Below are positions 3,440 to 51,838 of a stretch of DNA of 64,000 bases, in pieces. A program made the translations under genes and the position numbers. The stretch is from a plasmid: sequence record NZ_CP012903.1; one strand, written 5' to 3'. The notes under the pieces are model-generated. The model made no database searches. It was not told the DNA's origin and saw only the letters and a program-made list of their open reading frames with translations. Positions within the stretch are counted from its first letter, which is position 1, and every line of letters begins with the position of its first letter.

Positions 3440-3730
3440 ATGTTTATTCAAACGGCATTTAGCTTTTCAGGCGTTATTCAGTGCCTGTTTTGCCTTTTTT
3501 CCGGGCTTCGCCTGCATGGGCTGCGCAGGTTTTCAGTCTTTTTGGCCTCTAGCCCTTGCGTAGCAAGCGCAAGCAGCTATCGTTTTTGCAGTGCTGTGCC
3601 GCCTCGGTGGCGCAGCGTTTTTTCACGGTTAGCGCCCGTCGCCAAATTCAAGTTATCCGTTTTGGCTTCTGGTTCTAACATTTCGGTCAAGCCGACCCGC
3701 ATTCTGCGGTCGGCTTACCTCGCCCGTTAG
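3440..3730 (+). CDS. gcuF: gcuF/orfF cassette, hypothetical protein
   Basis: 96-aa ORF between dfrA12 and aadA2, as in the dfrA12-gcuF-aadA2 array. Confidence 0.6.
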   Translation: MFIQTAFSFSGVIQCLFCLFSGLRLHGLRRFSVFLASSPCVASASSYRFCSAVPPRWRSVFSRLAPVAKFKLSVLASGSNISVKPTRILRSAYLAR

Positions 3731-3735
3731 ACATC

Positions 3736-4527
3736 ATGAGGGAAGCGGTGACCATCGAAATTTCGAACCAACTATCAGAGGTGCTAAGCGTCATTGAGCG
3801 CCATCTGGAATCAACGTTGCTGGCCGTGCATTTGTACGGCTCCGCAGTGGATGGCGGCCTGAAGCCATACAGCGATATTGATTTGTTGGTTACTGTGGCC
3901 GTAAAGCTTGATGAAACGACGCGGCGAGCATTGCTCAATGATCTTATGGAGGCTTCGGCTTTCCCTGGCGAGAGCGAGACGCTCCGCGCTATAGAAGTCA
4001 CCCTTGTCGTGCATGACGACATCATCCCGTGGCGTTATCCGGCTAAGCGCGAGCTGCAATTTGGAGAATGGCAGCGCAATGACATTCTTGCGGGTATCTT
4101 CGAGCCAGCCATGATCGACATTGATCTAGCTATCCTGCTTACAAAAGCAAGAGAACATAGCGTTGCCTTGGTAGGTCCGGCAGCGGAGGAATTCTTTGAC
4201 CCGGTTCCTGAACAGGATCTATTCGAGGCGCTGAGGGAAACCTTGAAGCTATGGAACTCGCAGCCCGACTGGGCCGGCGATGAGCGAAATGTAGTGCTTA
4301 CGTTGTCCCGCATTTGGTACAGCGCAATAACCGGCAAAATCGCGCCGAAGGATGTCGCTGCCGACTGGGCAATAAAACGCCTACCTGCCCAGTATCAGCC
4401 CGTCTTACTTGAAGCTAAGCAAGCTTATCTGGGACAAAAAGAAGATCACTTGGCCTCACGCGCAGATCACTTGGAAGAATTTATTCGCTTTGTGAAAGGC
4501 GAGATCATCAAGTCAGTTGGTAAATGA
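3736..4527 (+). CDS. aadA2: aminoglycoside 3''-adenylyltransferase AadA2 (streptomycin/spectinomycin)
   Basis: 263-aa MREAVTIEISNQLSEVLSVIERHLESTLLAVHLYGSAVDGGLKPYSDIDLLVTV... Confidence 0.95.
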   Translation: MREAVTIEISNQLSEVLSVIERHLESTLLAVHLYGSAVDGGLKPYSDIDLLVTVAVKLDETTRRALLNDLMEASAFPGESETLRAIEVTLVVHDDIIPWRYPAKRELQFGEWQRNDILAGIFEPAMIDIDLAILLTKAREHSVALVGPAAEEFFDPVPEQDLFEALRETLKLWNSQPDWAGDERNVVLTLSRIWYSAITGKIAPKDVAADWAIKRLPAQYQPVLLEAKQAYLGQKEDHLASRADHLEEFIRFVKGEIIKSVGK

Positions 4528-4589
4528 TGTCTAACAATTCGTTCAAGCCGACCGCGCTACGCGCGGCGGCTTAACTCCGGCGTTAGATG
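4528..4589 (+). repeat. attC of the aadA2 cassette
   Basis: GTCTAAC...GTTAGAT palindromic element before the 3'-CS. Confidence 0.4.
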
Positions 4590-4690
4590 CACTAAGCACA
4601 TAATTGCTCACAGCCAAACTATCAGGTCAAGTCTGCTTTTATTATTTTTAAGCGTGCATAATAAGCCCTACACAAATTGGGAGATATATC

Positions 4691-5038
4691 ATGAAAGGCT
4701 GGCTTTTTCTTGTTATCGCAATAGTTGGCGAAGTAATCGCAACATCCGCATTAAAATCTAGCGAGGGCTTTACTAAGCTTGCCCCTTCCGCCGTTGTCAT
4801 AATCGGTTATGGCATCGCATTTTATTTTCTTTCTCTGGTTCTGAAATCCATCCCTGTCGGTGTTGCTTATGCAGTCTGGTCGGGACTCGGCGTCGTCATA
4901 ATTACAGCCATTGCCTGGTTGCTTCATGGGCAAAAGCTTGATGCGTGGGGCTTTGTAGGTATGGGGCTCATAATTGCTGCCTTTTTGCTCGCCCGATCCC
5001 CATCGTGGAAGTCGCTGCGGAGGCCGACGCCATGGTGA
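4691..5038 (+). CDS. qacEdelta1: QacEdelta1 truncated SMR efflux protein (3'-CS)
   Basis: 115-aa [33 protein letters not shown]... Confidence 0.9.
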
Positions 5039-5871
5039 CGGTGTTCGGCATTCTGAATCTCACCGAGGACTCCTTCTTCGATGAGAGCCGGCGGCTAGAC
5101 CCCGCCGGCGCTGTCACCGCGGCGATCGAAATGCTGCGAGTCGGATCAGACGTCGTGGATGTCGGACCGGCCGCCAGCCATCCGGACGCGAGGCCTGTAT
5201 CGCCGGCCGATGAGATCAGACGTATTGCGCCGCTCTTAGACGCCCTGTCCGATCAGATGCACCGTGTTTCAATCGACAGCTTCCAACCGGAAACCCAGCG
5301 CTATGCGCTCAAGCGCGGCGTGGGCTACCTGAACGATATCCAAGGATTTCCTGACCCTGCGCTCTATCCCGATATTGCTGAGGCGGACTGCAGGCTGGTG
5401 GTTATGCACTCAGCGCAGCGGGATGGCATCGCCACCCGCACCGGTCACCTTCGACCCGAAGACGCGCTCGACGAGATTGTGCGGTTCTTCGAGGCGCGGG
5501 TTTCCGCCTTGCGACGGAGCGGGGTCGCTGCCGACCGGCTCATCCTCGATCCGGGGATGGGATTTTTCTTGAGCCCCGCACCGGAAACATCGCTGCACGT
5601 GCTGTCGAACCTTCAAAAGCTGAAGTCGGCGTTGGGGCTTCCGCTATTGGTCTCGGTGTCGCGGAAATCCTTCTTGGGCGCCACCGTTGGCCTTCCTGTA
5701 AAGGATCTGGGTCCAGCGAGCCTTGCGGCGGAACTTCACGCGATCGGCAATGGCGCTGACTACGTCCGCACCCACGCGCCTGGAGATCTGCGAAGCGCAA
5801 TCACCTTCTCGGAAACCCTCGCGAAATTTCGCAGTCGCGACGCCAGAGACCGAGGGTTAGATCATGCCTAG
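5032..5871 (+). CDS. sul1: sulfonamide-resistant dihydropteroate synthase Sul1
   Basis: [28 protein letters not shown]... from the ATG at 5032; the listed ORF carries a spurious N-terminal extension overlapping qacEdelta1. Confidence 0.95.
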
Positions 5872-5889: not shown

Positions 5890-8050
5890 CCGCTAAATAT
5901 CTCCTTTTGGGTTGTTAATAAAACATCCAATAAGTTGACTGTGCGTGAAAAAGAAAGTTTTGTGTGATGGCGTTGAAGATCGCACCGTTAAGCTCTTATG
6001 TGGGATGGTGCAGAGCTCGACGACTACCGATAAAACGCAACCGCCGCAAACAGACAAGAAAAAGCCCCAACTGATAACAGTTGGGGCTTCAGTATTGTGA
6101 TTGGTGGAGCAATAGCACCCTGAACCCAAAACCTTCTCGCTCAACCGGTAGTGGCTGATAACAACTCGTGAGGGCTATTGCGGGTTAAGCATTTAGCGAT
6201 GTCTAGGGCCAGACTGGACGTCTGAACGCAAGCCGCTGATACTGTACATAACCACAGTATCAGCGGAGGATACCCATGTCGCTGGCAAGGAACGCCACGG
6301 CGAGTCAATCGCCCACTCAAACAAACGGTTACGAACGCCACCAACCCGACCAGACGCTGCTCTACCAGCTGGTTGAGCAGCACTACCCAGCCTTCAAAGC
6401 CTCACTCGAAGCCCAAGGTCAACACCTGCCTCGCTACATCCAACAAGAATTCAACGACCTCCTCCAATGTGGCCGTCTGGAGTATGGTTTCATGCGGGTT
6501 CGCTGCGAGGATTGTCATCACGAGCGTCTGGTCGCCTTCAGCTGTAAACGACGCGGCTTTTGCCCTAGCTGCGGTGCCCGCCGGATGGCCGAGAGTGCGG
6601 CGCTGCTGATAGACGAAGTCTTCCCCAAGGAGCCCATTCGCCAGTGGGTGCTCAGCTTTCCTTTCCAGCTACGCTTTTTGCTGGCTCGCCATCCCCAGCT
6701 GATGGGCCAGGTCTTGAGTATCGTCTATCGTACACTCTCAACTCATCTGATCAAAAAAGCCGGTTACACCAAAGCCTCTGCACAAACTGGCTCAGTGACT
6801 CTTATCCAACGCTTTGGCTCCGCGCTAAATCTCAATGTCCACTACCACATGCTGTTTCTCGATGGTGTCTATGCCGAAGATGACTATGGCAAGCAACGCT
6901 TCCATCGTGTCAAGGCACCCACTTACGATGAGCTGAATACGCTCGCTCACACCCTCAGCCATCGCATCGCTCGCTGCATGGAAAAGCGTGGGATTTTGGA
7001 GCGTGATGCCGAGAATACGTGGTTGACACTGGAAGAGGGCGAAGACGATACGCTGACTCAATTACATGGTGCTTCGGTTACGTATCGCATTGCCGTCGGC
7101 CCCCAGCAAGGGCGCAAAGTCTTCACCCTGCAAACCTTGCCAGGGCGTGAGGATAAAGCCGACTCAAGCAGTCGAGTAGCCAACCATGCTGGTTTCTCGC
7201 TACACGCCGGTGTGATGGCCGAAGCGCATCAGCGGGATAAGCTTGAGCGCTTGTGTCGCTACATTAGTCGGCCAGCGGTTTCAGAAAAACGTCTGGCATT
7301 AACCGCCAATGGGCAGGTGCGTTACGAGCTCAAAACTCCGTACCGCAATGGCACCACCCATGTGATCTTCGAGCCGCTGGACTTCATCGCCAAACTCGCT
7401 GCGTTGGTACCTAAGCCGCGAGTCAACCTCACACGCTTCCACGGCGTCTTTGCACCGAACAGCAAACACCGAGTTCAAGTAACACCCGCCAAGCGGGGCA
7501 AGAAGCCCGACAAATCGGAAGGTCTCGATACTAACTGGCGTGACAAGAGTCCTGCAGAGCGCCACCGCGCCATGACCTGGATGCAACGCCTCAAGCGAGT
7601 CTTCAATATTGATATTGAAGTCTGCGAACACTGCGGCGGTCACGTCAAAGTGATTGCCAGCATCGAAGATCCGAAGGTCATTGAGCAGATTCTCAAGCAT
7701 CTGAAACAGAAAACAGCCAAGGCGAATGCCGCCAAGCAGCGTGAGCTGCCACCAGAACGAGCGCCGCCACTGACTCCCAGCCTGTTCGATCCATCACAGA
7801 GTCGTCTCTTTGACTGACGACCCCAAATCCAACACTGCTCAACACTGCCAACTTTTAAACGGGGCGGTGGGGCAGTTTGTATCTCTCGAGCTATCAGGCT
7901 AGAGATTTTACCGCCAAATCGAACCTTATTAGAGCGGTTTAGGCTGGACCGGCAGTTAAAATTGGGGCTTGAGCGGTAAACGAGTGAGGGAATTTCAGGT
8001 AAGATACTTCGGATGAGGAGCAAAAAGGTGGTTTATACTTCCTATACCCC
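5890..8050 (+). mobile_element. ISCR1: ISCR1 (IS91-like rolling-circle element); 5' boundary approximate
   Basis: 513-aa transposase plus the conserved downstream terminus GGTTTATACTTCCTATACC ending near 8050. Confidence 0.75.
6276..7817 (+). CDS. orf513: ISCR1 transposase (orf513)
   Basis: 513-aa MSLARNATASQSPTQTNGYERHQPDQTLLYQLVEQHYPAF... with the HxxH...Y motif family. Confidence 0.9.
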   Translation: MSLARNATASQSPTQTNGYERHQPDQTLLYQLVEQHYPAFKASLEAQGQHLPRYIQQEFNDLLQCGRLEYGFMRVRCEDCHHERLVAFSCKRRGFCPSCGARRMAESAALLIDEVFPKEPIRQWVLSFPFQLRFLLARHPQLMGQVLSIVYRTLSTHLIKKAGYTKASAQTGSVTLIQRFGSALNLNVHYHMLFLDGVYAEDDYGKQRFHRVKAPTYDELNTLAHTLSHRIARCMEKRGILERDAENTWLTLEEGEDDTLTQLHGASVTYRIAVGPQQGRKVFTLQTLPGREDKADSSSRVANHAGFSLHAGVMAEAHQRDKLERLCRYISRPAVSEKRLALTANGQVRYELKTPYRNGTTHVIFEPLDFIAKLAALVPKPRVNLTRFHGVFAPNSKHRVQVTPAKRGKKPDKSEGLDTNWRDKSPAERHRAMTWMQRLKRVFNIDIEVCEHCGGHVKVIASIEDPKVIEQILKHLKQKTAKANAAKQRELPPERAPPLTPSLFDPSQSRLFD

Positions 8051-18709: not shown

Positions 18710-19529
18710 GGCACTGTTGCAAATAGTCGGTGGTGATAAACTTATCATCCCCTTTTGCTGATGGAGCTGCACATGAACCCATTCAAAGGCCGGCATTTTC
18801 AGCGTGACATCATTCTGTGGGCCGTACGCTGGTACTGCAAATACGGCATCAGTTACCGTGAGCTGCAGGAGATGCTGGCTGAACGCGGAGTGAATGTCGA
18901 TCACTCCACGATTTACCGCTGGGTTCAGCGTTATGCGCCTGAAATGGAAAAACGGCTGCGCTGGTACTGGCGTAACCCTTCCGATCTTTGCCCGTGGCAC
19001 ATGGATGAAACCTACGTGAAGGTCAATGGCCGCTGGGCGTATCTGTACCGGGCCGTCGACAGCCGGGGCCGCACTGTCGATTTTTATCTCTCCTCCCGTC
19101 GTAACAGCAAAGCTGCATACCGGTTTCTGGGTAAAATCCTCAACAACGTGAAGAAGTGGCAGATCCCGCGATTCATCAACACGGATAAAGCGCCCGCCTA
19201 TGGTCGCGCGCTTGCTCTGCTCAAACGCGAAGGCCGGTGCCCGTCTGACGTTGAACACCGACAGATTAAGTACCGGAACAACGTGATTGAATGCGATCAT
19301 GGCAAACTGAAACGGATAATCAACGCCACGCTGGGATTTAAATCCATGAAGACGGCTTACGCCACCATCAAAGGTATTGAGGTGATGCGTGCACTACGCA
19401 AAGGCCAGGCCTCAGCATTTTATTATGGTGATCCCCTGGGCGAAATGCGCCTGGTAAGCAGAGTTTTTGAAATGTAAGGCCTTTGAATAAGACAAAAGGC
19501 TGCCTCATCGCTAACTTTGCAACAGTGCC
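18710..19529 (+). mobile_element. IS26: IS26 copy 2 (820 bp), variant encoding Tnp26 G184N (GGC to AAC)
   Basis: Terminal IRs at 18710 and 19516-19529; the Tnp ORF reads KRIINATLGF where copies 1 and 3 read KRIIGATLGF. Confidence 0.95.
18755..19477 (+). CDS. tnp26: Tnp26 transposase, G184N variant
   Basis: Identical to copy 1 except Gly184Asn (two adjacent nucleotide changes). Confidence 0.9.
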   Translation: MLMELHMNPFKGRHFQRDIILWAVRWYCKYGISYRELQEMLAERGVNVDHSTIYRWVQRYAPEMEKRLRWYWRNPSDLCPWHMDETYVKVNGRWAYLYRAVDSRGRTVDFYLSSRRNSKAAYRFLGKILNNVKKWQIPRFINTDKAPAYGRALALLKREGRCPSDVEHRQIKYRNNVIECDHGKLKRIINATLGFKSMKTAYATIKGIEVMRALRKGQASAFYYGDPLGEMRLVSRVFEM

Positions 19530-39816: not shown

Positions 39817-40191
39817 CTAAGCGTATGGGGATTAACTTATTTAAAATTAAGCGCACATTTTTGGGGGAGTCGAGAAAGCTATTTTGGTCTCGTGATCGCC
39901 GGGATTTTCTTTCTAATTATGCACTGTCGCTATTGCGCAAAAAATGTCGTTATCAAAAATGATGGGCTTGCACCCATGAGAGAATTGATTAATATCGGGG
40001 TCAGTTTGGATATGGGGTTTCTCGCCCATTTCATCCAAAAGTCTAAAGTTTGCTCGAACCTCTGTGATATCAGGATTTTAAGGGAGAAGTGGTTTATTAT
40101 AAGTAATTTATTTTGCTGCTTTCATGGATTTTGATACTTTCGAGATCGTATGCCTTGAACAACCTATCAGGTTTTCTATCTGACTATAACT

Positions 40192-40740
40192 TTACCCCTC
40201 CATCAACAAGCATTCAATTTTTTGGTGTAATATTTTATTGATCGGGCGACCTTTGTATTTTCCTTCTTGTTTGGCTTTTTGCACTCCTTGGGCTTGGCGG
40301 CGACGTCTATCTTCGTAATCCTTTCTCGCAACCGCTGCCAGCATGTCTAACATCATACTGTTAAAGGCGGCAAGCATTCGTTCCGTAAACTCATCGGTGC
40401 GATTCATAAATTGATAGCTGGTTGGGAGATCTAAAGAAACAACCTTCAACCCTTTATGTCCAATGAGATATTTTAATTTTTCCCAGTCATCCGTATTCAA
40501 GCGGCTAATTCTATCCACCTGTTCAACTTAAATAATATCACCTGGCATGGCCACATTGAGTAAGCGAAAGAGTTCAGGTCTGTGAAGTTGGGCGCCCGAT
40601 TCATTCTCTTCAAACCAGCAGGCAATCTGTAGTCCCATTCCCTCGACAAATTTCAATAGTTCATTTTTTGCTCTTGATGCATCCTGTTCATGGGTTGATG
40701 CGCGAAGATATCCTTTAATGGCGTAATGCCGTCTTTATTG
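40192..40740 (-). pseudogene. serine recombinase paralog inactivated by a TTA-to-TAA nonsense codon and lacking an ATG start
   Basis: Translation ...YLRASTHEQDASRAKNELLKFVEGMGLQIACWFEENESGAQLHRPELFRLLNVAMPGDII*VEQVDRISRLNTDDW... is collinear with the intact resolvase at 41598-42230 (PGDILLVEQIDRLTR). Confidence 0.6.
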
Positions 40741-40994
40741 AGGATGAGGTTGTTCTGTGTTTCTAATAGCTGGCGTTGATTGAGTTCAGACTCTAACCGT
40801 TGGCGTTGTTCGAATTGAATAGCATCACGATTTGAGAGCGTCAGAATATTGGCTGCCTTGCTCGCATGAGCAGCAAATAAAGTTGCAAGTATGAACACGA
40901 AACAGATAGATTTGATTGACATAAAATTACGAATAGTTTTCATTTTCAACGTTATAATTGACCGTAATTTACAGTTTGGGTTGAGATATCTCAA
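40653..40994 (-). CDS. small secreted protein with a signal peptide
   Basis: MSIKSICFVFILATLFAAHASKA signal-like N-terminus; its 3' end overlaps the recombinase pseudogene. Confidence 0.35.
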   Translation of the reverse strand: MRYLNPNCKLRSIITLKMKTIRNFMSIKSICFVFILATLFAAHASKAANILTLSNRDAIQFEQRQRLESELNQRQLLETQNNLILNKDGITPLKDIFAHQPMNRMHQEQKMNY

Positions 40995-41295
40995 TCATTC
41001 GTTTATTAATGAAACTATTTAGATCAATTTATGCCAGTGAATCAGCAGTTTTTAGTGATTAAATGTTTGGATAAGTAATTTGGTTATTTTTATTTCTGTT
41101 TTTTGTGGGTAAAATGAAATAAAAAAATAACTTATCTTGTATTAGTGATTTATTTGTCTTTATATTTCATTGCATGTGATTTTATTCAAAATAGTGACAT
41201 TAACGTTAAGTCTGATGGGGGATAAAAGTAGATGTAATATTATATTTTGTGACAGGTAATCGTGATATACCTCATTTCTCAATAACACATTAATT

Positions 41296-41568
41296 CTATT
41301 TGGTTTTTAAAGACCAGCTGCTTCCACCATAAAGTGTAGAACCAATGACTTCTTCCCATATATTGTGTTCGATGAGTAAGTATTTAATCGACTGGAATTC
41401 GATATGCGTTAAAACGCCTTCTTCTTCCCCATTTTGTGATAGTAAAAGATAACCTTCAGGTATGCGAACCGAGGATTGAAAGGCGGCCTTTGCAAATAAA
41501 CGATAAAATGTGGTGATTGTATATCCTCGACGTAATAGTCCGAGGAGTTGTTCTGTTGGTATCGCCAT
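41296..41568 (-). CDS. hypothetical protein (90 aa) directly downstream of the resolvase
   Basis: ORF only. Confidence 0.35.
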   Translation of the reverse strand: MAIPTEQLLGLLRRGYTITTFYRLFAKAAFQSSVRIPEGYLLLSQNGEEEGVLTHIEFQSIKYLLIEHNIWEEVIGSTLYGGSSWSLKTK

Positions 41569-41597
41569 ACGTTTTTCCTCTCTAAATAGAATGCTGA

Positions 41598-42230
41598 TTA
41601 TTTTTGTTGATAACGTAGTTGAATTCGACAGACTTGTGAACGACTATAGCCAGTAGCCTCAGCGGTTTCTCGAATACTGAGTCCTTTGGTTTTTCGGTAA
41701 TAAATCACTTTCTCATGACGCTCTTTATCCGCCTGCTTTCCTTTGTATTTACCTAAAGTCTGAGCGCGCTCGATACCTTGTTTTTGTCGTTCGCGGCGAC
41801 TGATCCAATCTTTGTGTGACATTGCTGCCATCAAATCAATCAACATGGTATTAATAGCAGAAAGTACAGCTTGAGTGATAGGGTCATTCTGTGTGGGATC
41901 TTGGTTATTTAAGGCTTGCCAAGATGTTGGTATATCGAGACTGACAATCCGTAACTCATGTTGCTCTATTTGTTTTTTTAATTTTAGCCAATCGGTATTG
42001 TTTAATCGAGTGAGCCTATCAATTTGTTCAACTAATAAAATATCACCTTGTTGACTATCACTGAGTAAACGCGAAAGTTCAGGGCGTTCTAATTTTGTGC
42101 CACTAATATGCTCGCGATAATAATTCGCAATTCGTCCTCCTCGTTCTTCAACAAAATCATTTAGCATATTTTTTGCTCTATCTGCATATTGATCTTCAGA
42201 AGAGGCTCTGAGGTAAGCTCGTATGAACAT
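41598..42230 (-). CDS. tnpR: serine recombinase/resolvase (210 aa) of the Tn3-family element
   Basis: MFIRAYLRASSEDQ... with the catalytic Ser region and a C-terminal HTH (GLSIRETAEATGYSRSQVCRIQ). Confidence 0.85.
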   Translation of the reverse strand: MFIRAYLRASSEDQYADRAKNMLNDFVEERGGRIANYYREHISGTKLERPELSRLLSDSQQGDILLVEQIDRLTRLNNTDWLKLKKQIEQHELRIVSLDIPTSWQALNNQDPTQNDPITQAVLSAINTMLIDLMAAMSHKDWISRRERQKQGIERAQTLGKYKGKQADKERHEKVIYYRKTKGLSIRETAEATGYSRSQVCRIQLRYQQK

Positions 42231-42424
42231 TTTTTCACCAATCTATCGCATTTAAATTATCTCATTAAAAGTATCGCATATAGATTATTGCATTGATAGT
42301 GATTTGATGCATTTTAGGTTCTCGCTTTGGGGTATACCCTAATGCTATAAGTCTAATTGACTTGATTTTATCAAATAGGCTAACTAAAATTATTGTGTTA
42401 ATAATTAACACAAAAGGTGGTGCT
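42231..42424. promoter_or_regulatory. putative res/promoter region between divergent tnpR and parD
   Basis: AT-rich segment with repeated ATCGCAT / TTGCATTGATAG motifs. Confidence 0.35.
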
Positions 42425-42667
42425 ATGGCTCGTACAACAAGTGTAACAATCGGGGCTCAATTGGATGAGTTTGTCAATCAACTCATTTCGTCAGGAAGAT
42501 ATGGCTCAACAAGTGAAGTCGTTCGCTCTGCTCTACGTTTACTTGAGGTCCAAGAAAAGCAAACAGCAGCATTGAAGATGTTAATTGATGCAGGTGAGCA
42601 AAGTGGTGAGTCGTCGTTAACACTCCAAGATATCGCTAAGAAAGTGAAGAACGCTCATAATGTATAA
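42425..42667 (+). CDS. parD: ParD-family antitoxin (ribbon-helix-helix, 80 aa)
   Basis: MARTTSVTIGAQLDEFVNQLISSGRYGSTSEVVRSALRLLE... Confidence 0.8.
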   Translation: MARTTSVTIGAQLDEFVNQLISSGRYGSTSEVVRSALRLLEVQEKQTAALKMLIDAGEQSGESSLTLQDIAKKVKNAHNV

Positions 42668-42953
42668 ACTTTCTAATTTAGCGGCTAAAGACTTTGAAGG
42701 GATATTCGAGTATACCCTCGTGAATTTTGGTATTAGGAAAGCAGATGAATACACTAAAAACTTACACGATGTATTAGAAGTGATTAGCCCTAATCCATTG
42801 ATAGGAATCGAGTGTACAGAAATTGCAGTTGGGGTTAGGCGTCATAACCACTCTAAGCATGCAATTTTTTACCGATATAGAACCGATGATATTTTTGTTA
42901 TCCGAATTCTTCATCAACAAATGGAGCCACTAAAACACTTTTATTTTGAGTAG
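42660..42953 (+). CDS. parE: ParE/RelE-family toxin (97 aa)
   Basis: 8-nt overlap with parD; ...EIAVGVRRHNHSKHAIFYRYRTDDIFVIRILHQQMEPLKHF. Confidence 0.8.
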   Translation: MYKLSNLAAKDFEGIFEYTLVNFGIRKADEYTKNLHDVLEVISPNPLIGIECTEIAVGVRRHNHSKHAIFYRYRTDDIFVIRILHQQMEPLKHFYFE

Positions 42954-43091
42954 TTTGAAAAGTAAGTAGACAAATATTTTAATAGCATTATTTTCATGCT
43001 GAAGATTAAAGTACCCTCTTTAGTTTTATCAGAAAGATAACCTAAAAAAGGTACTTATATGAATATTTAGCTATTATTTATTAATACAGCA

Positions 43092-43397
43092 TTACATTTT
43101 ATCATCTTTAGCCATGCTATCTTTAGCCATGCTATCTTTAGCCATGCTATCTTTAGCCATGCTATCTTTAGCCATGCTATCTTTAGCCATGCTATCTTTA
43201 GCCATGCTATCTTTAGCCATGCTATCTTTAGCCATGCTATCTTTAGCCATGCTATCTTTAGCCATGCTGTCTTTAGCCATGCTGTCTTTAGCCATGCTAT
43301 CTTTAGCCATGCTGTCTTTAGCCATGCTGTCTGCATAAGAAGCTGCAGCTGTCATACATAACGCACTAGTTAAGATTACCAATATTAATTTTTTCAT
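43092..43397 (-). CDS. secreted repeat protein: signal peptide plus (DSMAK)x14
   Basis: [22 protein letters not shown] then [10 protein letters not shown]...DDKM; the other two frames of the repeat give AWLKI/AMLSL runs and are rejected. Confidence 0.55.
43111..43335. repeat. tandem array of about 15 copies of a 15-bp unit GCCATGCT(A/G)TCTTTA
   Basis: Direct reading; units are contiguous and in phase with the minus-strand coding frame. Confidence 0.9.
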
Positions 43398-43539
43398 AAC
43401 AAATTTACTCTCTATCAGTTTATTTATATTAATACTACCATTATAACTATGGGTTATTGATTAAAAAATGATTACAAATTTGTCATAAAGCGAGGAGTAA
43501 GAAATATGGGCTTGTTGCAAATAATAAATTTGCGCATTT

Positions 43540-43778
43540 TTCACTCAGCGCTAAGAAAGTGAAGAACGCTCATAATGTATAAACTTTCCAATTTAGCGGC
43601 TAAAGACTTTGAAGGGATATTCGAGTATACAGAAATTGCAGTTGGGGTTAGGCGTCATAACCACTCTAAGCATGCAATTTTTTACCGATATAGAACCGAT
43701 GATATTTTTGTTATCCGAATTCTTCATCAACAAATGGAGCCACTAAAACACTTTTATTTTGATGAGATTGACCTGTAA
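43540..43778 (+). pseudogene. partial direct duplicate of the parD 3' end plus parE with a 90-bp internal deletion
   Basis: GCTAAGAAAGTGAAGAACGCTCATAATGTATAAACTTTC... repeats 42630-42700; the 67-aa ORF is ParE missing LVNFGIRKADEYTKNLHDVLEVISPNPLIGIEC. Confidence 0.6.
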
Positions 43779-44006
43779 ACTCGAAAACTTCAGTTAACTC
43801 ATTTTTTATAAATCCCTTCTCATTAACTAGCTTAGTTTCTTTAAACTTATCGTGCGGAACTGGTTCTCTATAAGTCGATTTTTATAAGAAATGCGTACCA
43901 TATTGCTTGGTGCAGATAAGGTAGACTTAAATTGCACTTTTATATCGATTACGCGCGCGTCCATTATATGATGTTGTTTATTTTTAGAGGATAGAACATA
44001 ACCACA

Positions 44007-47000
44007 ATGAAAGAGATTAAATCAGGCCGTATTCAAATTTTGACAGAACAGGAGATTCATGAGCTCTATTCTCGTCCAATATTTAATCAAATTGAGCGTG
44101 AAGAATATTTTTCATTAGATCCGAGTATAAAAAAAATCCTCACTAAAATGGGAAAAATTGAAACGAAAATATATTTAATTCTTCTGATTGGTTATTTTCG
44201 CGCGAAGCCTGTTGTCGCTCAATTTAAACTACGAGAGGTTAAACAAGATGTCGACTATATTTATGCGACACATTTTCCAAATAGAAAGCCGAAATACCCC
44301 TTTATTGCTAAAAGTACTCGAGCAACATTGATCGCTAAAATGCATGAAATACTGGGTTTTTCGCGGTTATTAAGACAAGATAAACAAGCCTTGATAGAGC
44401 GTTTGGGTGATGTCGCAACAATCTGTACATACCCCAAATATATTTTTGATGAATGCCTCGCTTTTTTAGGTCAAAACAGAATTGGATTAGTGGGTTATTC
44501 CACTTTGCAAAATATGATCACCACGGTTTTAGCTAATGAGAGGCATCGTACCGAGTTGATCCTTTCAAATAGCGTGCCACCAATAATACATAAAAAATTA
44601 AAGAAGATACTGCATACAAAAGGGGTTTTAAATAGTCTATCTGGCCAACAAGGCGCAGCTAAAGATTTTACACCGACAGAGCTCGCAAGTGAAATTGAAA
44701 CGCATAATGCCATAAAAAGTGTTTATCCCGACGTAAAACGTCTTGTTGGTGAATTGGGATTATCATTAGGTAATTTAAGCTATTATGCATCGATTATTCA
44801 ACATCAATCGATTTATAAAATTCGTCGATTTCCCGAATGGCAAGGCATGTTATATCTGGTTTGTTATCTATTTTTTCGCTACCAAGAAACTAATGATAAA
44901 TTGGTAACAGCTTTTTTATATGTGACGAGAAAGCAAAGGGAAGCTGCGAGTGCTTTAGCTAAGTTACGCATTGCAGAAGAACTGGAAATTATTCGTGAAA
45001 AGTTAATGCATGCGGGTAATATTTTACACCTCTTTGTTGATGAAAACGTCAGTGACAATACGCAATTTGGTGATATTCGCCAAAATGCATTTGCAATGAT
45101 GTCTAAAGATGAAATTCAGTTAATAAGTCAACATCTTAATAAGAATAGTTTTGATAAAACCCATTATGAGTGGCTATACATTGATACACAATACAGAAAA
45201 ATTGCGAATACAATGAGGTCACTCTTTCTCGCGATTGATATCGAGTGCGAACCAGGATTACAACTACTATCTTCCCAATTATTAACAGCAAAATCAGAAC
45301 TTCAAAAAGATAAGCACATTTCTACCGTCGATCAGCGGTTACTGTTAAAAAACGATAAACCTTTTATCCTGATAGATGAACAGGTTAATACTCAACGATT
45401 TGAATACTATTTATACCAAAAAGTGGCTCGGATGATTGAGAGTAACAATATTTACATCAATGAAAGCGCCAGCAACAAGCGTTTAGACGATGATCTGATT
45501 TCAGCCACCGAGTGGAAAAAAAGCCATGTCATCATTCAAAAAACAGGATTAACTCGGCTCAATACACCGATACAACAAACGCTTTCGGAATTAACGCAAA
45601 AACTGAGAGACCAAATGGAGCGAATTGGTCGCAATATCCATGATGGAGCCAATGATTTCGTGACACTTCAACCGCGTTCAAATCAGTTAACATGGAAACT
45701 GGCGAATAAACGCTGGAAAGATGACATTGATAATCCCATATATAACCAGCTCCAACATATGGGGATCATTGAAATTATGGACTATGTTCATCAAAAAACG
45801 GGTTACTTAGATGCATTTAAAAATATCGCCATCAAAAAAGAAAAACACTAAGGCCAAAGAGGGCGATTTACTCGCTTGCATATTTGGAAATGGCTCAAAC
45901 TATGGTGTTCATCATATGTCATCAATATCAGATAGAGCCATCGGTGTGCTTAGAGCCGTCAATGATGGTTATATTAGGCCTGAAACAACGAGTGAAGCTA
46001 ATGATATGATAGCTGATGCTTTAGCAAAACTCCCCATTTTCAAATATTATACGATTAACGAAAGTGCCCCATTTGGTAGTATTGATGGCCAAAAACATGG
46101 TTGCCGAATCAATACATTTAAAGCCCGTTTTTCTGCTAAATATTTCCGAAAAGGGAAAGGCGTATCAGCACTCACATTAGTTTCAAATCATGTACCAATA
46201 AATACGAAAGTGATTTCAGCCAATGAATATGAGGCTCACCACGCATTCGATTTACTCTATAATAATACCAGCCATATTCAGCCCAAAACATTAGCAACAG
46301 ACACGCATGGCGTTAACAATGTAAACTTTGCTATCCTTGATCTCTTTGGGTATCAGTTTGCCCCGCGATATGCAAAATTTAAACACGTTTTTAATGAATT
46401 GTTTGAGATCGAGTATGATGAAATCCTTTCCCTGAAACTTAAAAAATCGCTCAACTTATCACTCATTCAAGAAGAGTGGGAAAATATTCAATGGATAATT
46501 TGTTCATTAAGCCGTAAAACGACGACACAAAGCACGGTGATTACTAAGCTTTCTAACAGTAAGAAAAACAATCGCACCTTAGCGGCTCTTCGTGAATATG
46601 ACCGAATAATTAAGTGTTTATACGTTCTCGATTATGTTGATGACAAAATGCTCAGGCAGTTTGTCCAACAAGCACTTAATCGGGGTGAGGCTTACCATCA
46701 ATTACGGCGTGCAATTGCGTCAATTAATGGTAATCAATTCAGAGGTGGCGATGATTACCAGATAGAACAATGGAATGATTGTGCTCGTATCATTGCTAAC
46801 TGCATTATTTATTATAATTCTGCATTATTATCCAGTTTGATTGAAAAATTTGCGCGTGAAAATAATCAAGAAGCGGTGAATATGATAGCTGAGTTATCAC
46901 CTGTCGCATGGCAGCATATACAGCTGGCCGGTAATTACACCTTTGGCCTTAAAAAAGATAATATTGTACTGGAAAGATTACTGGAGAATTTAGATCCTCT

Positions 47001-47034
47001 TATTTCAGAAGAGTCGTTAAGCTTAGCGGCATAG
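44007..47034 (+). pseudogene. tnpA: Tn3-family transposase TnpA split by a frameshift into 614-aa and 407-aa ORFs
   Basis: N-terminal DUF4158-like part and C-terminal DDE part (...KKKNTKAKEGDLLACIFGNGSNYGVHHM...); the frames overlap at 45811-45851 within an A-rich run. Confidence 0.8.
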
Positions 47035-47132
47035 TCTATTAATATTATTAAACTATATATCGGCTGTAGTCCTTGATATCAAAGGGCTACAAGCAAACTT
47101 TGGACTTTTCGATGAAATGGGCACACAACCCC

Positions 47133-51018: not shown

Positions 51019-51838
51019 GGCACTGTTGCAAATAGTCGGTGGTGATAAACTTATCATCCCCTTTTGCTGATGGAGCTGCACATGAACCCATTCAAAGGCC
51101 GGCATTTTCAGCGTGACATCATTCTGTGGGCCGTACGCTGGTACTGCAAATACGGCATCAGTTACCGTGAGCTGCAGGAGATGCTGGCTGAACGCGGAGT
51201 GAATGTCGATCACTCCACGATTTACCGCTGGGTTCAGCGTTATGCGCCTGAAATGGAAAAACGGCTGCGCTGGTACTGGCGTAACCCTTCCGATCTTTGC
51301 CCGTGGCACATGGATGAAACCTACGTGAAGGTCAATGGCCGCTGGGCGTATCTGTACCGGGCCGTCGACAGCCGGGGCCGCACTGTCGATTTTTATCTCT
51401 CCTCCCGTCGTAACAGCAAAGCTGCATACCGGTTTCTGGGTAAAATCCTCAACAACGTGAAGAAGTGGCAGATCCCGCGATTCATCAACACGGATAAAGC
51501 GCCCGCCTATGGTCGCGCGCTTGCTCTGCTCAAACGCGAAGGCCGGTGCCCGTCTGACGTTGAACACCGACAGATTAAGTACCGGAACAACGTGATTGAA
51601 TGCGATCATGGCAAACTGAAACGGATAATCGGCGCCACGCTGGGATTTAAATCCATGAAGACGGCTTACGCCACCATCAAAGGTATTGAGGTGATGCGTG
51701 CACTACGCAAAGGCCAGGCCTCAGCATTTTATTATGGTGATCCCCTGGGCGAAATGCGCCTGGTAAGCAGAGTTTTTGAAATGTAAGGCCTTTGAATAAG
51801 ACAAAACGCTGCCTCATCGCTAACTTTGCAACAGTGCC
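51019..51838 (+). mobile_element. IS26: IS26 copy 3 (820 bp; wild-type Tnp, one SNP in the noncoding end)
   Basis: IRs at 51019 and 51825-51838; GACAAAACGCTGCC here versus GACAAAAGGCTGCC in copies 1 and 2. Confidence 0.95.
51064..51786 (+). CDS. tnp26: Tnp26 transposase
   Basis: Identical to the copy 1 protein. Confidence 0.95.
   Translation: MLMELHMNPFKGRHFQRDIILWAVRWYCKYGISYRELQEMLAERGVNVDHSTIYRWVQRYAPEMEKRLRWYWRNPSDLCPWHMDETYVKVNGRWAYLYRAVDSRGRTVDFYLSSRRNSKAAYRFLGKILNNVKKWQIPRFINTDKAPAYGRALALLKREGRCPSDVEHRQIKYRNNVIECDHGKLKRIIGATLGFKSMKTAYATIKGIEVMRALRKGQASAFYYGDPLGEMRLVSRVFEM

Follow-up and report, generated by a model that had tools for sequence, protein, structure and literature searches.

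The 64,000-nucleotide (nt) stretch of plasmid record NZ_CP012903.1 analysed here (the window) carries, on its minus strand, a predicted gene for an exported methionine-rich peptide of the MXKDX/MrpX type, which lies between a parDE toxin-antitoxin (TA) module and a partial second copy of that module. It matches the Citrobacter freundii IncT plasmid pT-OXA-181 (NC_020123.1) with 100% identity. We propose, with moderate confidence, that the peptide acts in the manner of MrpX, as an exported sacrificial methionine sink for hypochlorite-type oxidants that would be recycled by the MsrPQ system of the host and co-induced through CusR/HprR-type control. This reading is based on membership of the TIGR02953 family, on a methionine and charge content like that of MrpX, on the partnership of the family with MsrP and on an upstream box of the hiuH-msrPQ type. 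Neither the gene family nor its annotation or likely chemistry is new. Unusual in the window copy are the absence of a reductase partner, the near-identical and variable repeats and the CusR/HprR-type candidate operator. In the literature searched, no description was found of this orphan plasmid-borne lineage, of its homogenised variable array or of its candidate link to the CusR/HprR regulators of the host.

The repeat ORF belongs to a known family of methionine-rich peptides

The open reading frame (ORF) was translated to a precursor that consists of a 22-amino acid (aa) leader, (DSMAK)x15 and a terminal DDKM (for coordinates of this and other features see Table 1). The mature part of 79 aa was found to contain 20% Met and 42% Asp plus Lys, and histidine was absent from the protein. 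No lipobox was detected in the leader by reading of the sequence, and the leader-type N-terminal architecture was found by sequence comparison to recur in 80 relatives. At the DNA level, Tandem Repeats Finder (TRF) placed the array at 43104-43332, with a 15-nt unit in 15.3 copies (98% matches, score 430). The sole difference between units is GAC versus GAT (A/G on the plus strand), which is synonymous. By one count ten of the 15 units are identical and five have the single-base change; by another, 4 of the 15 are variant. A preliminary description of this DNA, made from its letters, had reported a signal-peptide protein built of DSMAK pentapeptides and encoded by about 15 copies of a 15-bp repeat with a few A/G variants, and our results agree on both points. 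The uninterrupted nature of the pentapeptide array likewise stood, although the number of full units is 15 and not 14 as previously counted, and the start given for the gene, 43067, is that of a different ORF that overlaps it in another frame.

The product was matched by the NCBIfam model TIGR02953 (pentapeptide MXKDX repeat protein) with 97.5 bits and E = 3.2e-28 over model positions 2-78 of 78, compared to a curated cut-off of 41 bits, and is named "pentapeptide MXKDX repeat protein" by RefSeq in pT-OXA-181 (WP_168550186.1). Pfam matches were weak and of low complexity only. Fifteen copies of DSMAK correspond in register to MAKDS, and the M, K and D columns were invariant in an alignment with 12 family members. 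Judged by its sequence, the repeat ORF is a genuine gene, and the exported methionine-rich peptides to which its product belongs are an established family. An assembly artefact, an outcome that the preliminary description named as fatal to its account, is an unlikely source of the array, since about 30 plasmids assembled independently of one another, and three further NCBI assemblies, contain the gene.

Fifteen near-identical 15-bp direct repeats beside plasmid maintenance genes, with three frames open across them, could also act as DNA, for example as iterons or as a centromere-like array for a plasmid protein, in which case the ORF would be incidental. This possibility appears very remote to us, as the start codon, the signal peptide and the family match occur in the DSMAK frame alone, the variant positions are third codon positions of that frame, and the degenerate relatives conserve the peptide pattern and not the DNA repeat.

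Table 1. Features of the repeat-gene region and of the surrounding Tn3-family element (positions in the window; a dot marks features given no strand)
Feature	Position	Strand	Basis and remarks
Left terminal inverted repeat (IR), Tn3-family element	40014-40051	.	32/38 match with right IR
Serine resolvase tnpR	41598-42230	-	PF00239, 1.6e-21
parD antitoxin	42425-42667	+	PF03693 (ParD_antitoxin), 2.7e-20; TIGR02606, 1.6e-26
parE toxin, copy A (97 aa)	42660-42953	+	PF05016 (ParE_toxin), 2.1e-16
Hairpin just 3' of stop codon, probable terminator	43009-43056	-	Folding
MXKDX/MrpX-type gene	43092-43397	-	ORF and translation, 101-aa precursor; TIGR02953; RefSeq WP_168550186.1
Tandem array, 15 x 15 nt (GAYAGCATGGCTAAA = DSMAK)	43107-43331	-	Units aabaab, then nine b
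Predicted signal-peptide coding part	43332-43397	-	Read from sequence; 22-aa hydrophobic leader, probable cleavage after SYA
Weak Shine-Dalgarno-like GAGAG	43408-43412	-	Read from sequence; 10 nt before ATG
-10 hexamer TATAAT, perfect	43440-43445	-	Read from sequence; 25 nt downstream of operator, 42 nt upstream of ATG
Candidate operator of CusR/HprR type, palindromic (ATTACAAATTTGTCAT; on the coding strand ATGACAAATTTGTAAT)	43471-43486	.	Scan with published boxes
Remnant (41 nt) of IS6-family element end (GGGCTTGTTGCAAA...)	43508-43548	+	Broken at 43548/43549
Partial second copy: last 26 nt of parD and parE' (ORF 43575-43778, 67 aa)	43549-43778	+	
Tn3-family transposase tnpA, split by frameshift	44007-47034	+	NF033527, PF13700, PF01526
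Right terminal IR, Tn3-family element	47095-47132	.	32/38 match with left IR

Most relatives are encoded near an MsrP-type reductase gene

The preliminary description saw no obvious functional assignment for the protein. The family to which it clearly belongs has been studied (PMC4436054, PMC8315932, PMC8550376): the members examined, MrpX, BcrX and C3568, come from msrPQ-type operons and serve in the periplasm as sacrificial methionine targets for hypochlorite. In Azospira suillum PS, the periplasmic MrpX contains 20% Met and 44% charged residues and is strongly induced and rapidly oxidised by hypochlorite; YedY/MsrP was proposed to regenerate it (PMC4436054). The window protein is likewise small, has a predicted signal peptide and contains about 20% Met and more than 40% charged residues. 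By contrast, MrpX is encoded in a yedY1Z1-mrpX operon on a chromosomal island and is controlled by the extracytoplasmic function (ECF) sigma system SigF/NrsF (PMC4436054), whereas the window gene is on a plasmid and within a transposon, has no reductase partner, has a CusR/HprR-type candidate operator and is composed of near-identical repeats. BcrX of Brucella melitensis, an MXKDX-repeat protein termed an MrpX homolog (PMC8315932), and C3568 of uropathogenic Escherichia coli CFT073, a third homolog from an msrPQ-like operon (PMC8550376), resemble the window protein as methionine-rich MXKDX-type peptides linked to resistance against host oxidants. Unlike the window gene, each of the two shares a transcript with MsrPQ-like genes and neither moves as a solo gene; their regulators are the ECF sigma factor BcrS for BcrX and the OrhKR two-component system (site TCACA-N15-TGTGA) for C3568. 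A family member of Asaia has been detected in the secretome.

A word-indexed protein search with the window protein returned no matches, presumably because the query is of low complexity. An exhaustive HMMER search, which together with the TIGR02953 match supplied the database comparison suggested for DSMAK-repeat proteins in the preliminary description, returned 1566 matches at E <= 0.001. The top long matches were rejected as low-complexity false positives (e.g., DSVVL repeats); the real relatives are about 100-170 aa in length with a signal peptide and degenerate D-x-M-x-K units. When species-representative genomes were scanned with the family alignment, 80 chromosomal loci were obtained from Burkholderiales, Pseudomonas, Methylobacterium, Serratia, Rahnella, Dechloromonas and other hosts. 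These relatives have 8-15 degenerate units, with at most 1-5 identical 15-mers in register.

Molybdopterin oxidoreductases (PF00174) accounted for 43 of the 147 nearest-neighbour ORFs at these loci, and MsrA, MsrB, cytochrome b561, ECF sigma factors and thioredoxin-type proteins were also found nearby. By a tblastn recount that is independent of ORF calling, an MsrP-type gene is near 76 of the 80 chromosomal loci and, in 70, lies immediately upstream on the same strand. No MsrP-like gene was detected by tblastn in the 64-kb window or at five related plasmid loci, no msr, cus, pco, sil or hpr gene is annotated on the whole plasmid, and neither an msrP remnant upstream of the repeat gene nor an ECF sigma gene near it was found.

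MXKDX genes are rare on plasmids, with 48 of 72,556 records positive, mostly of the Providencia lineage studied here or on Rahnella megaplasmids. The Yersinia ruckeri IncFII plasmid p17Y0159.1 carries a cytochrome b / molybdopterin oxidoreductase / MXKDX unit between IS6-family transposases (3534-5264), which is an apparent composite transposon with a whole methionine-sulfoxide repair system. This unit resembles the window copy in being plasmid-borne, associated with IS6-family elements and from Enterobacterales. It differs as a three-gene system with degenerate repeats and no CusR/HprR-like box, compared to the peptide gene alone in the window.

Candidate expression signals

With a candidate operator, a -10 hexamer, a ribosome-binding site, the ORF and a hairpin arranged in this order on the coding strand, the cassette looks like a complete, activator-dependent transcription unit. 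The candidate operator, TGACAAATTTGTAAT, was found to differ by one mismatch from the published palindrome of pcoE, TGACAAnnTTGTCAT, as the sole such site in 64 kb (0.12 expected), and by one mismatch from the hiuH box core, ATTACAAnnTTGTAAT, again as the sole such site in 64 kb (0.02 expected). In E. coli, CATTACAAAATTGTAATG is the shared CusR/HprR box of hiuH-msrPQ, and copper induces msrP through CusR (PMC9302797). The cusC/cusR site is AAAATGACAAnnTTGTCATTTT, and the pcoE site is that of a promoter of a plasmid gene controlled by chromosomal CusR (PMC11195947). Based on these similarities, CusR/HprR may bind at 43471-43486. A comparable box was found once in 843 kb of other family loci, far from the gene, and none was near the genes at the 80 other family loci or the Yersinia plasmid operon.

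No -35 element was recognisable upstream of the TATAAT hexamer. The hairpin was predicted at -25.5 kcal/mol on the minus strand (z = -4.8, with 0 of 200 shuffles folding as well) and was weaker on the plus strand (-13.7, z = -2.3). It was identified by folding; a terminator consensus scan of the coding strand gave no match.

A second role suggested by an operator of this type is that of a periplasmic Cu(I)/Ag(I) sponge, which would bind metal by its Met thioethers like PcoE and SilE and be switched on by the CusRS system of the host. PcoE and SilE are plasmid-borne, periplasmic, intrinsically disordered and Met-rich (PMC5008109). They share with the window gene a plasmid location, Met richness and, as far as the candidate signals of the window gene indicate, a promoter of their own, which in pcoE includes the CusR palindrome one base removed from the candidate operator and is dependent on chromosomal CusRS (PMC5008109, PMC11195947). 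Moreover, the two stresses overlap in that copper induces msrP through CusR. At the equivalent position of an MXKDX-less plasmid, L006 (pVCSW10.2, from a soil Providencia), genes for a PepSY-associated transmembrane (PepSY-TM) protein and a DUF2946 protein are found, a gene pair that is often linked to copper or iron handling.

We nevertheless consider the metal sponge unlikely. SilE and PcoE bind metal by ten conserved His and HxxM/MxxH motifs (MxxHxxxxxHxxM and HxxMxxxHxxM; PMC5008109), whereas the window protein has no His. It also has no sequence homology to them, with no match to a PcoE/SilE family of Pfam or NCBIfam at E up to 0.1. Its Met residues are spaced i, i+5 and not i+3/i+4. The pairing with an MsrP-type gene at 76 of the 80 loci, the absence of any copper-resistance family from the 25 commonest neighbour families and the lack of annotated pco, sil and cus genes on the plasmid also argue against this role.

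The array varies in unit number between related plasmids

The cassette is carried by about 30 Providencia plasmids in addition to pT-OXA-181. Units were counted directly in 11 records and were found to number 12, 15, 16, 17, 17, 18, 22, 23, 23, 24 and 25; all 11 alleles are in frame with constant N- and C-termini. Two lineages were distinguished. In group a, parDE is 100% identical to that of the window and the array consists of units 'aabaab' followed by a variable run of b. In group b, parDE is about 94.5% identical to the window, and the units 'a g', of which g encodes DGMAK, are preceded by c units and followed by a units, both in runs of variable length. Overall, the unit variants comprise two synonymous changes and one Ser-to-Gly change at an 'X' position. 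The exact 15-unit allele was also detected in three more assemblies, and clonal plasmids have equal unit counts by coordinates. Comparison of p.BML2526 (L002) and pNR1418-2 (L003) to the window, base by base, revealed identical flanks at 40014-43939.

Changes in unit number were confined to runs of identical units, the pattern expected of slippage or unequal exchange. The preliminary description had proposed a contingency locus and a comparison of related plasmids. The comparison bears out the variation, with 12-25 units between identical or near-identical flanks, but not on/off switching, since a 15-nt unit within the ORF keeps the frame and alters only the number of Met-containing units.

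Start-site annotation of the repeat gene is inconsistent across records. For several group b alleles (L005 5861-6196, L009 and L013), the RefSeq start is placed at an internal ATG (Met15) and most of the signal peptide is lost, for example with a coding sequence of 294 nt compared to the full ORF of 336 nt.

A possible role as an MrpX-like oxidant sink

According to the MrpX-like model, the 16 exposed methionines of the peptide would be converted in the periplasm to methionine sulfoxide by hypochlorite and related oxidants, and essential envelope proteins would be spared. The oxidised peptide would then be re-reduced by the chromosomally encoded periplasmic MsrPQ of the host. As a unit with its own candidate operator, -10 hexamer, ribosome-binding site, ORF and probable terminator, the cassette could come under the control of the same host regulators that activate msrPQ in response to hypochlorite or copper. 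An array recently homogenised, and expanding and contracting by slippage or unequal recombination in runs of identical units, would set the number of methionines per molecule (12-25 units) without frame loss. The cassette itself resides in the TA region of a Tn3-family element on Providencia-type plasmids, with the second parD'/parE' as likely debris of IS6-family recombination and deletion.

Several points weigh against this model. A consensus scan detected no full sigma-70 promoter on the coding strand, so that expression would depend on the putative activator, and the Shine-Dalgarno sequence is weak at its distance of 10 nt from the ATG. The operator was first recognised by eye, the scans with published motifs having been made afterwards, and its type is common to copper/silver regulons and equally compatible with a metal role. 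As the reductase is not linked, recycling of the peptide would rest on a host enzyme. The AlphaFold single-sequence model of the protein, one long helix with a predicted template modelling score (pTM) of 0.22, is uninformative at a predicted local distance difference test (pLDDT) of 62. Finally, part of the copy-number differences could be short-read assembly errors.

A bolder version of the MrpX-like model, which we advance tentatively and regard as rather doubtful, is that of a solo mobile oxidant buffer. The peptide gene would have been freed from its reductase, would have acquired a CusR/HprR-type operator and would fire together with host msrPQ under bleach, neutrophil hypochlorous acid (HOCl) or copper. 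It would have spread on carbapenemase plasmids of Providencia and related genera, with its capacity tuned rapidly by the 12-25 in-frame repeats.

MrpX-type peptides have so far been studied only within chromosomal msrPQ operons. A self-contained copy on NDM-1, OXA-181 or CTX-M-3 plasmids of hospital isolates suggests a cheap, transferable add-on for defence of the envelope against hypochlorite or copper, stresses met in neutrophils, on bleach-cleaned wards and on copper surfaces. If the solo-buffer reading is true, exposure to disinfectant or copper could co-select resistance plasmids. The natural allelic series of 12-25 near-identical units could show whether protection scales with methionine number. 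Practical value is moderate; the family and its likely chemistry are established.

The second parDE copy and an IS6-family remnant

The location of the repeat gene between parDE and a partial, deletion-bearing direct copy, as reported in the preliminary description, was borne out by the repeat coordinates: 42634-42715 corresponds to 43549-43630 (1 mismatch) and 42808-~42949 to 43621-~43762. The second copy has an in-frame 90-nt gap between CGAGTATAC and CGAGTGTAC, in agreement with the internal deletion previously noted, but begins at 43549 and not at 43540. ParE' lacks residues 20-49, its Pfam match is limited to model positions 56-88 of 89, and it has no promoter or antitoxin of its own; by these features parE' is most likely a dead remnant. 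The first module had been described as intact. Both of its genes have Pfam matches, but copy A of ParE has a premature stop and is 4 codons shorter than its 101-aa relatives.

The second ParE copy ends in DEIDL*, and the copy before the cassette ends in DEFEK* in group b and E* in the window. L006 is arranged as tnpR-parD-parE with no MXKDX gene, and its ParE of 101 aa ends in DEIDL*. At the 3' end of its parE and beyond, L006 matches the second copy of the window and the sequence that follows up to 43937. Thus, the second copy keeps the ancestral end. The 90-nt deletion is common to all group a plasmids examined (one protein accession). The second copy of group b breaks off after only 77 nt, at 3-5 nt from the start of the 90-nt deletion of the window, and directly abuts another IS6-family tip.

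The terminus GGGCTTGTTGCAAA between the cassette and the second copy is identical at 11 of 14 positions to the IS26 IR, GGCACTGTTGCAAA, which occurs six times in the window. A 40-nt terminus is shared with pVCSW10.1, in which the adjoining ORF matches PF13610 (DDE_Tnp_IS240, 7e-51), and the terminus was found again in further Providencia plasmids. A reading of 43508-43530 as a Xer/dif-type site was rejected, as the XerD arm consensus was unmatched and the IS6-family end explains the sequence. The preliminary description had suggested that the repeat gene arrived by, or provoked, a duplication. With the junction of cassette and second copy inside an IS6-family terminus, and the truncated copy of a relative abutting another such tip, the structure was likelier built by IS6-family recombination and later deletions than through the repeat gene. 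The first step may have been either a fusion of two parDE-bearing molecules, mediated by an insertion sequence (IS) and accompanied by deletion, or a Campbell-type integration.

These rearrangements are also compatible with a neutral or decaying hitch-hiker, that is, a leftover of an msrQP-mrpX unit that was moved by IS6-family elements, kept beside plasmid-stabilising genes and subject to neutral slippage. The repeat gene is apart from any reductase and has IS debris and the probably dead parE' as its neighbours, the adjacent transposase is frameshifted in the window plasmid, and the Yersinia ruckeri plasmid demonstrates a complete unit flanked by IS6-family transposases. We find this explanation quite improbable, however, as the ORF is intact in all 11 counted alleles from two lineages about 5% diverged in parDE, the unit variants are synonymous or family-compatible, the candidate operator, -10 hexamer and hairpin are retained, and no msrP remnant is found upstream.

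By their 14-bp ends, three IS26 copies were located in the window, at 371-1190, 18710-19529 and 51019-51838. Among the other features of the plasmid are IS6100, ISEcp1-blaOXA-181, a mer operon and a class 1 integron. The window is pieced together from mobile elements, in keeping with the rearrangements seen in the repeat-gene region.

The surrounding Tn3-family element

The gene order within the Tn3-family element is tnpR (-), 14-nt repeats, parD-parE (+), MXKDX cassette (-), parD'/parE' (+) and tnpA (+). In TA-bearing elements of this family, the TA pair is located between divergent tnpR and tnpA genes and transcribed toward tnpA (Lima-Mendez et al. 2020, PMC7157771). The window conforms to these transposons in its tnpR-parDE-tnpA layout and in the evidence for arm exchange between related transposons, and differs from them by the passenger cassette, the IS6-family remnant and the partial TA copy that are added between the TA pair and tnpA. 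A frameshift near 45811-45851 divides tnpA of pT-OXA-181 into two ORFs that overlap each other (44007-45851 and 45811-47034), and the element in the window therefore probably cannot move on its own. By comparison, tnpA is a single intact gene of 3027 nt in p.BML2526 and pNR1418-2. A 5-bp target duplication was looked for around the element and not found.

Between tnpR and parD, about 3.6 copies of a 14-nt motif (TATCGCATTTAAAT) were found at 42244-42294, and these probably serve as the res subsites to which the resolvase binds. A TATCG motif related to them is seen again at 43935-43951. Several lineages switch partner at 43903-43941, 65-100 nt upstream of tnpA: homology with L006 and L007 ends at 43937-43941, the first substitutions compared to L002 and L003 are at 43940, and many Providencia and Proteus plasmids share the tnpA side alone, from about 43903-43911 onward. 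This segment may represent a res-like crossover site (res site I) or a recombination hot spot. The former would sit uneasily with the position of res described by Lima-Mendez et al. (PMC7157771), which is between tnpR and the TA pair.

In the left arm, two small minus-strand ORFs (40653-40943 and 41296-41568, of 96 and 90 aa) with no Pfam match are conserved in all related plasmids. In L006, the PepSY-TM and DUF2946 genes are located downstream of parE at 6021-7849, and passenger genes related to envelope stress seem to accumulate at the position that follows parE.

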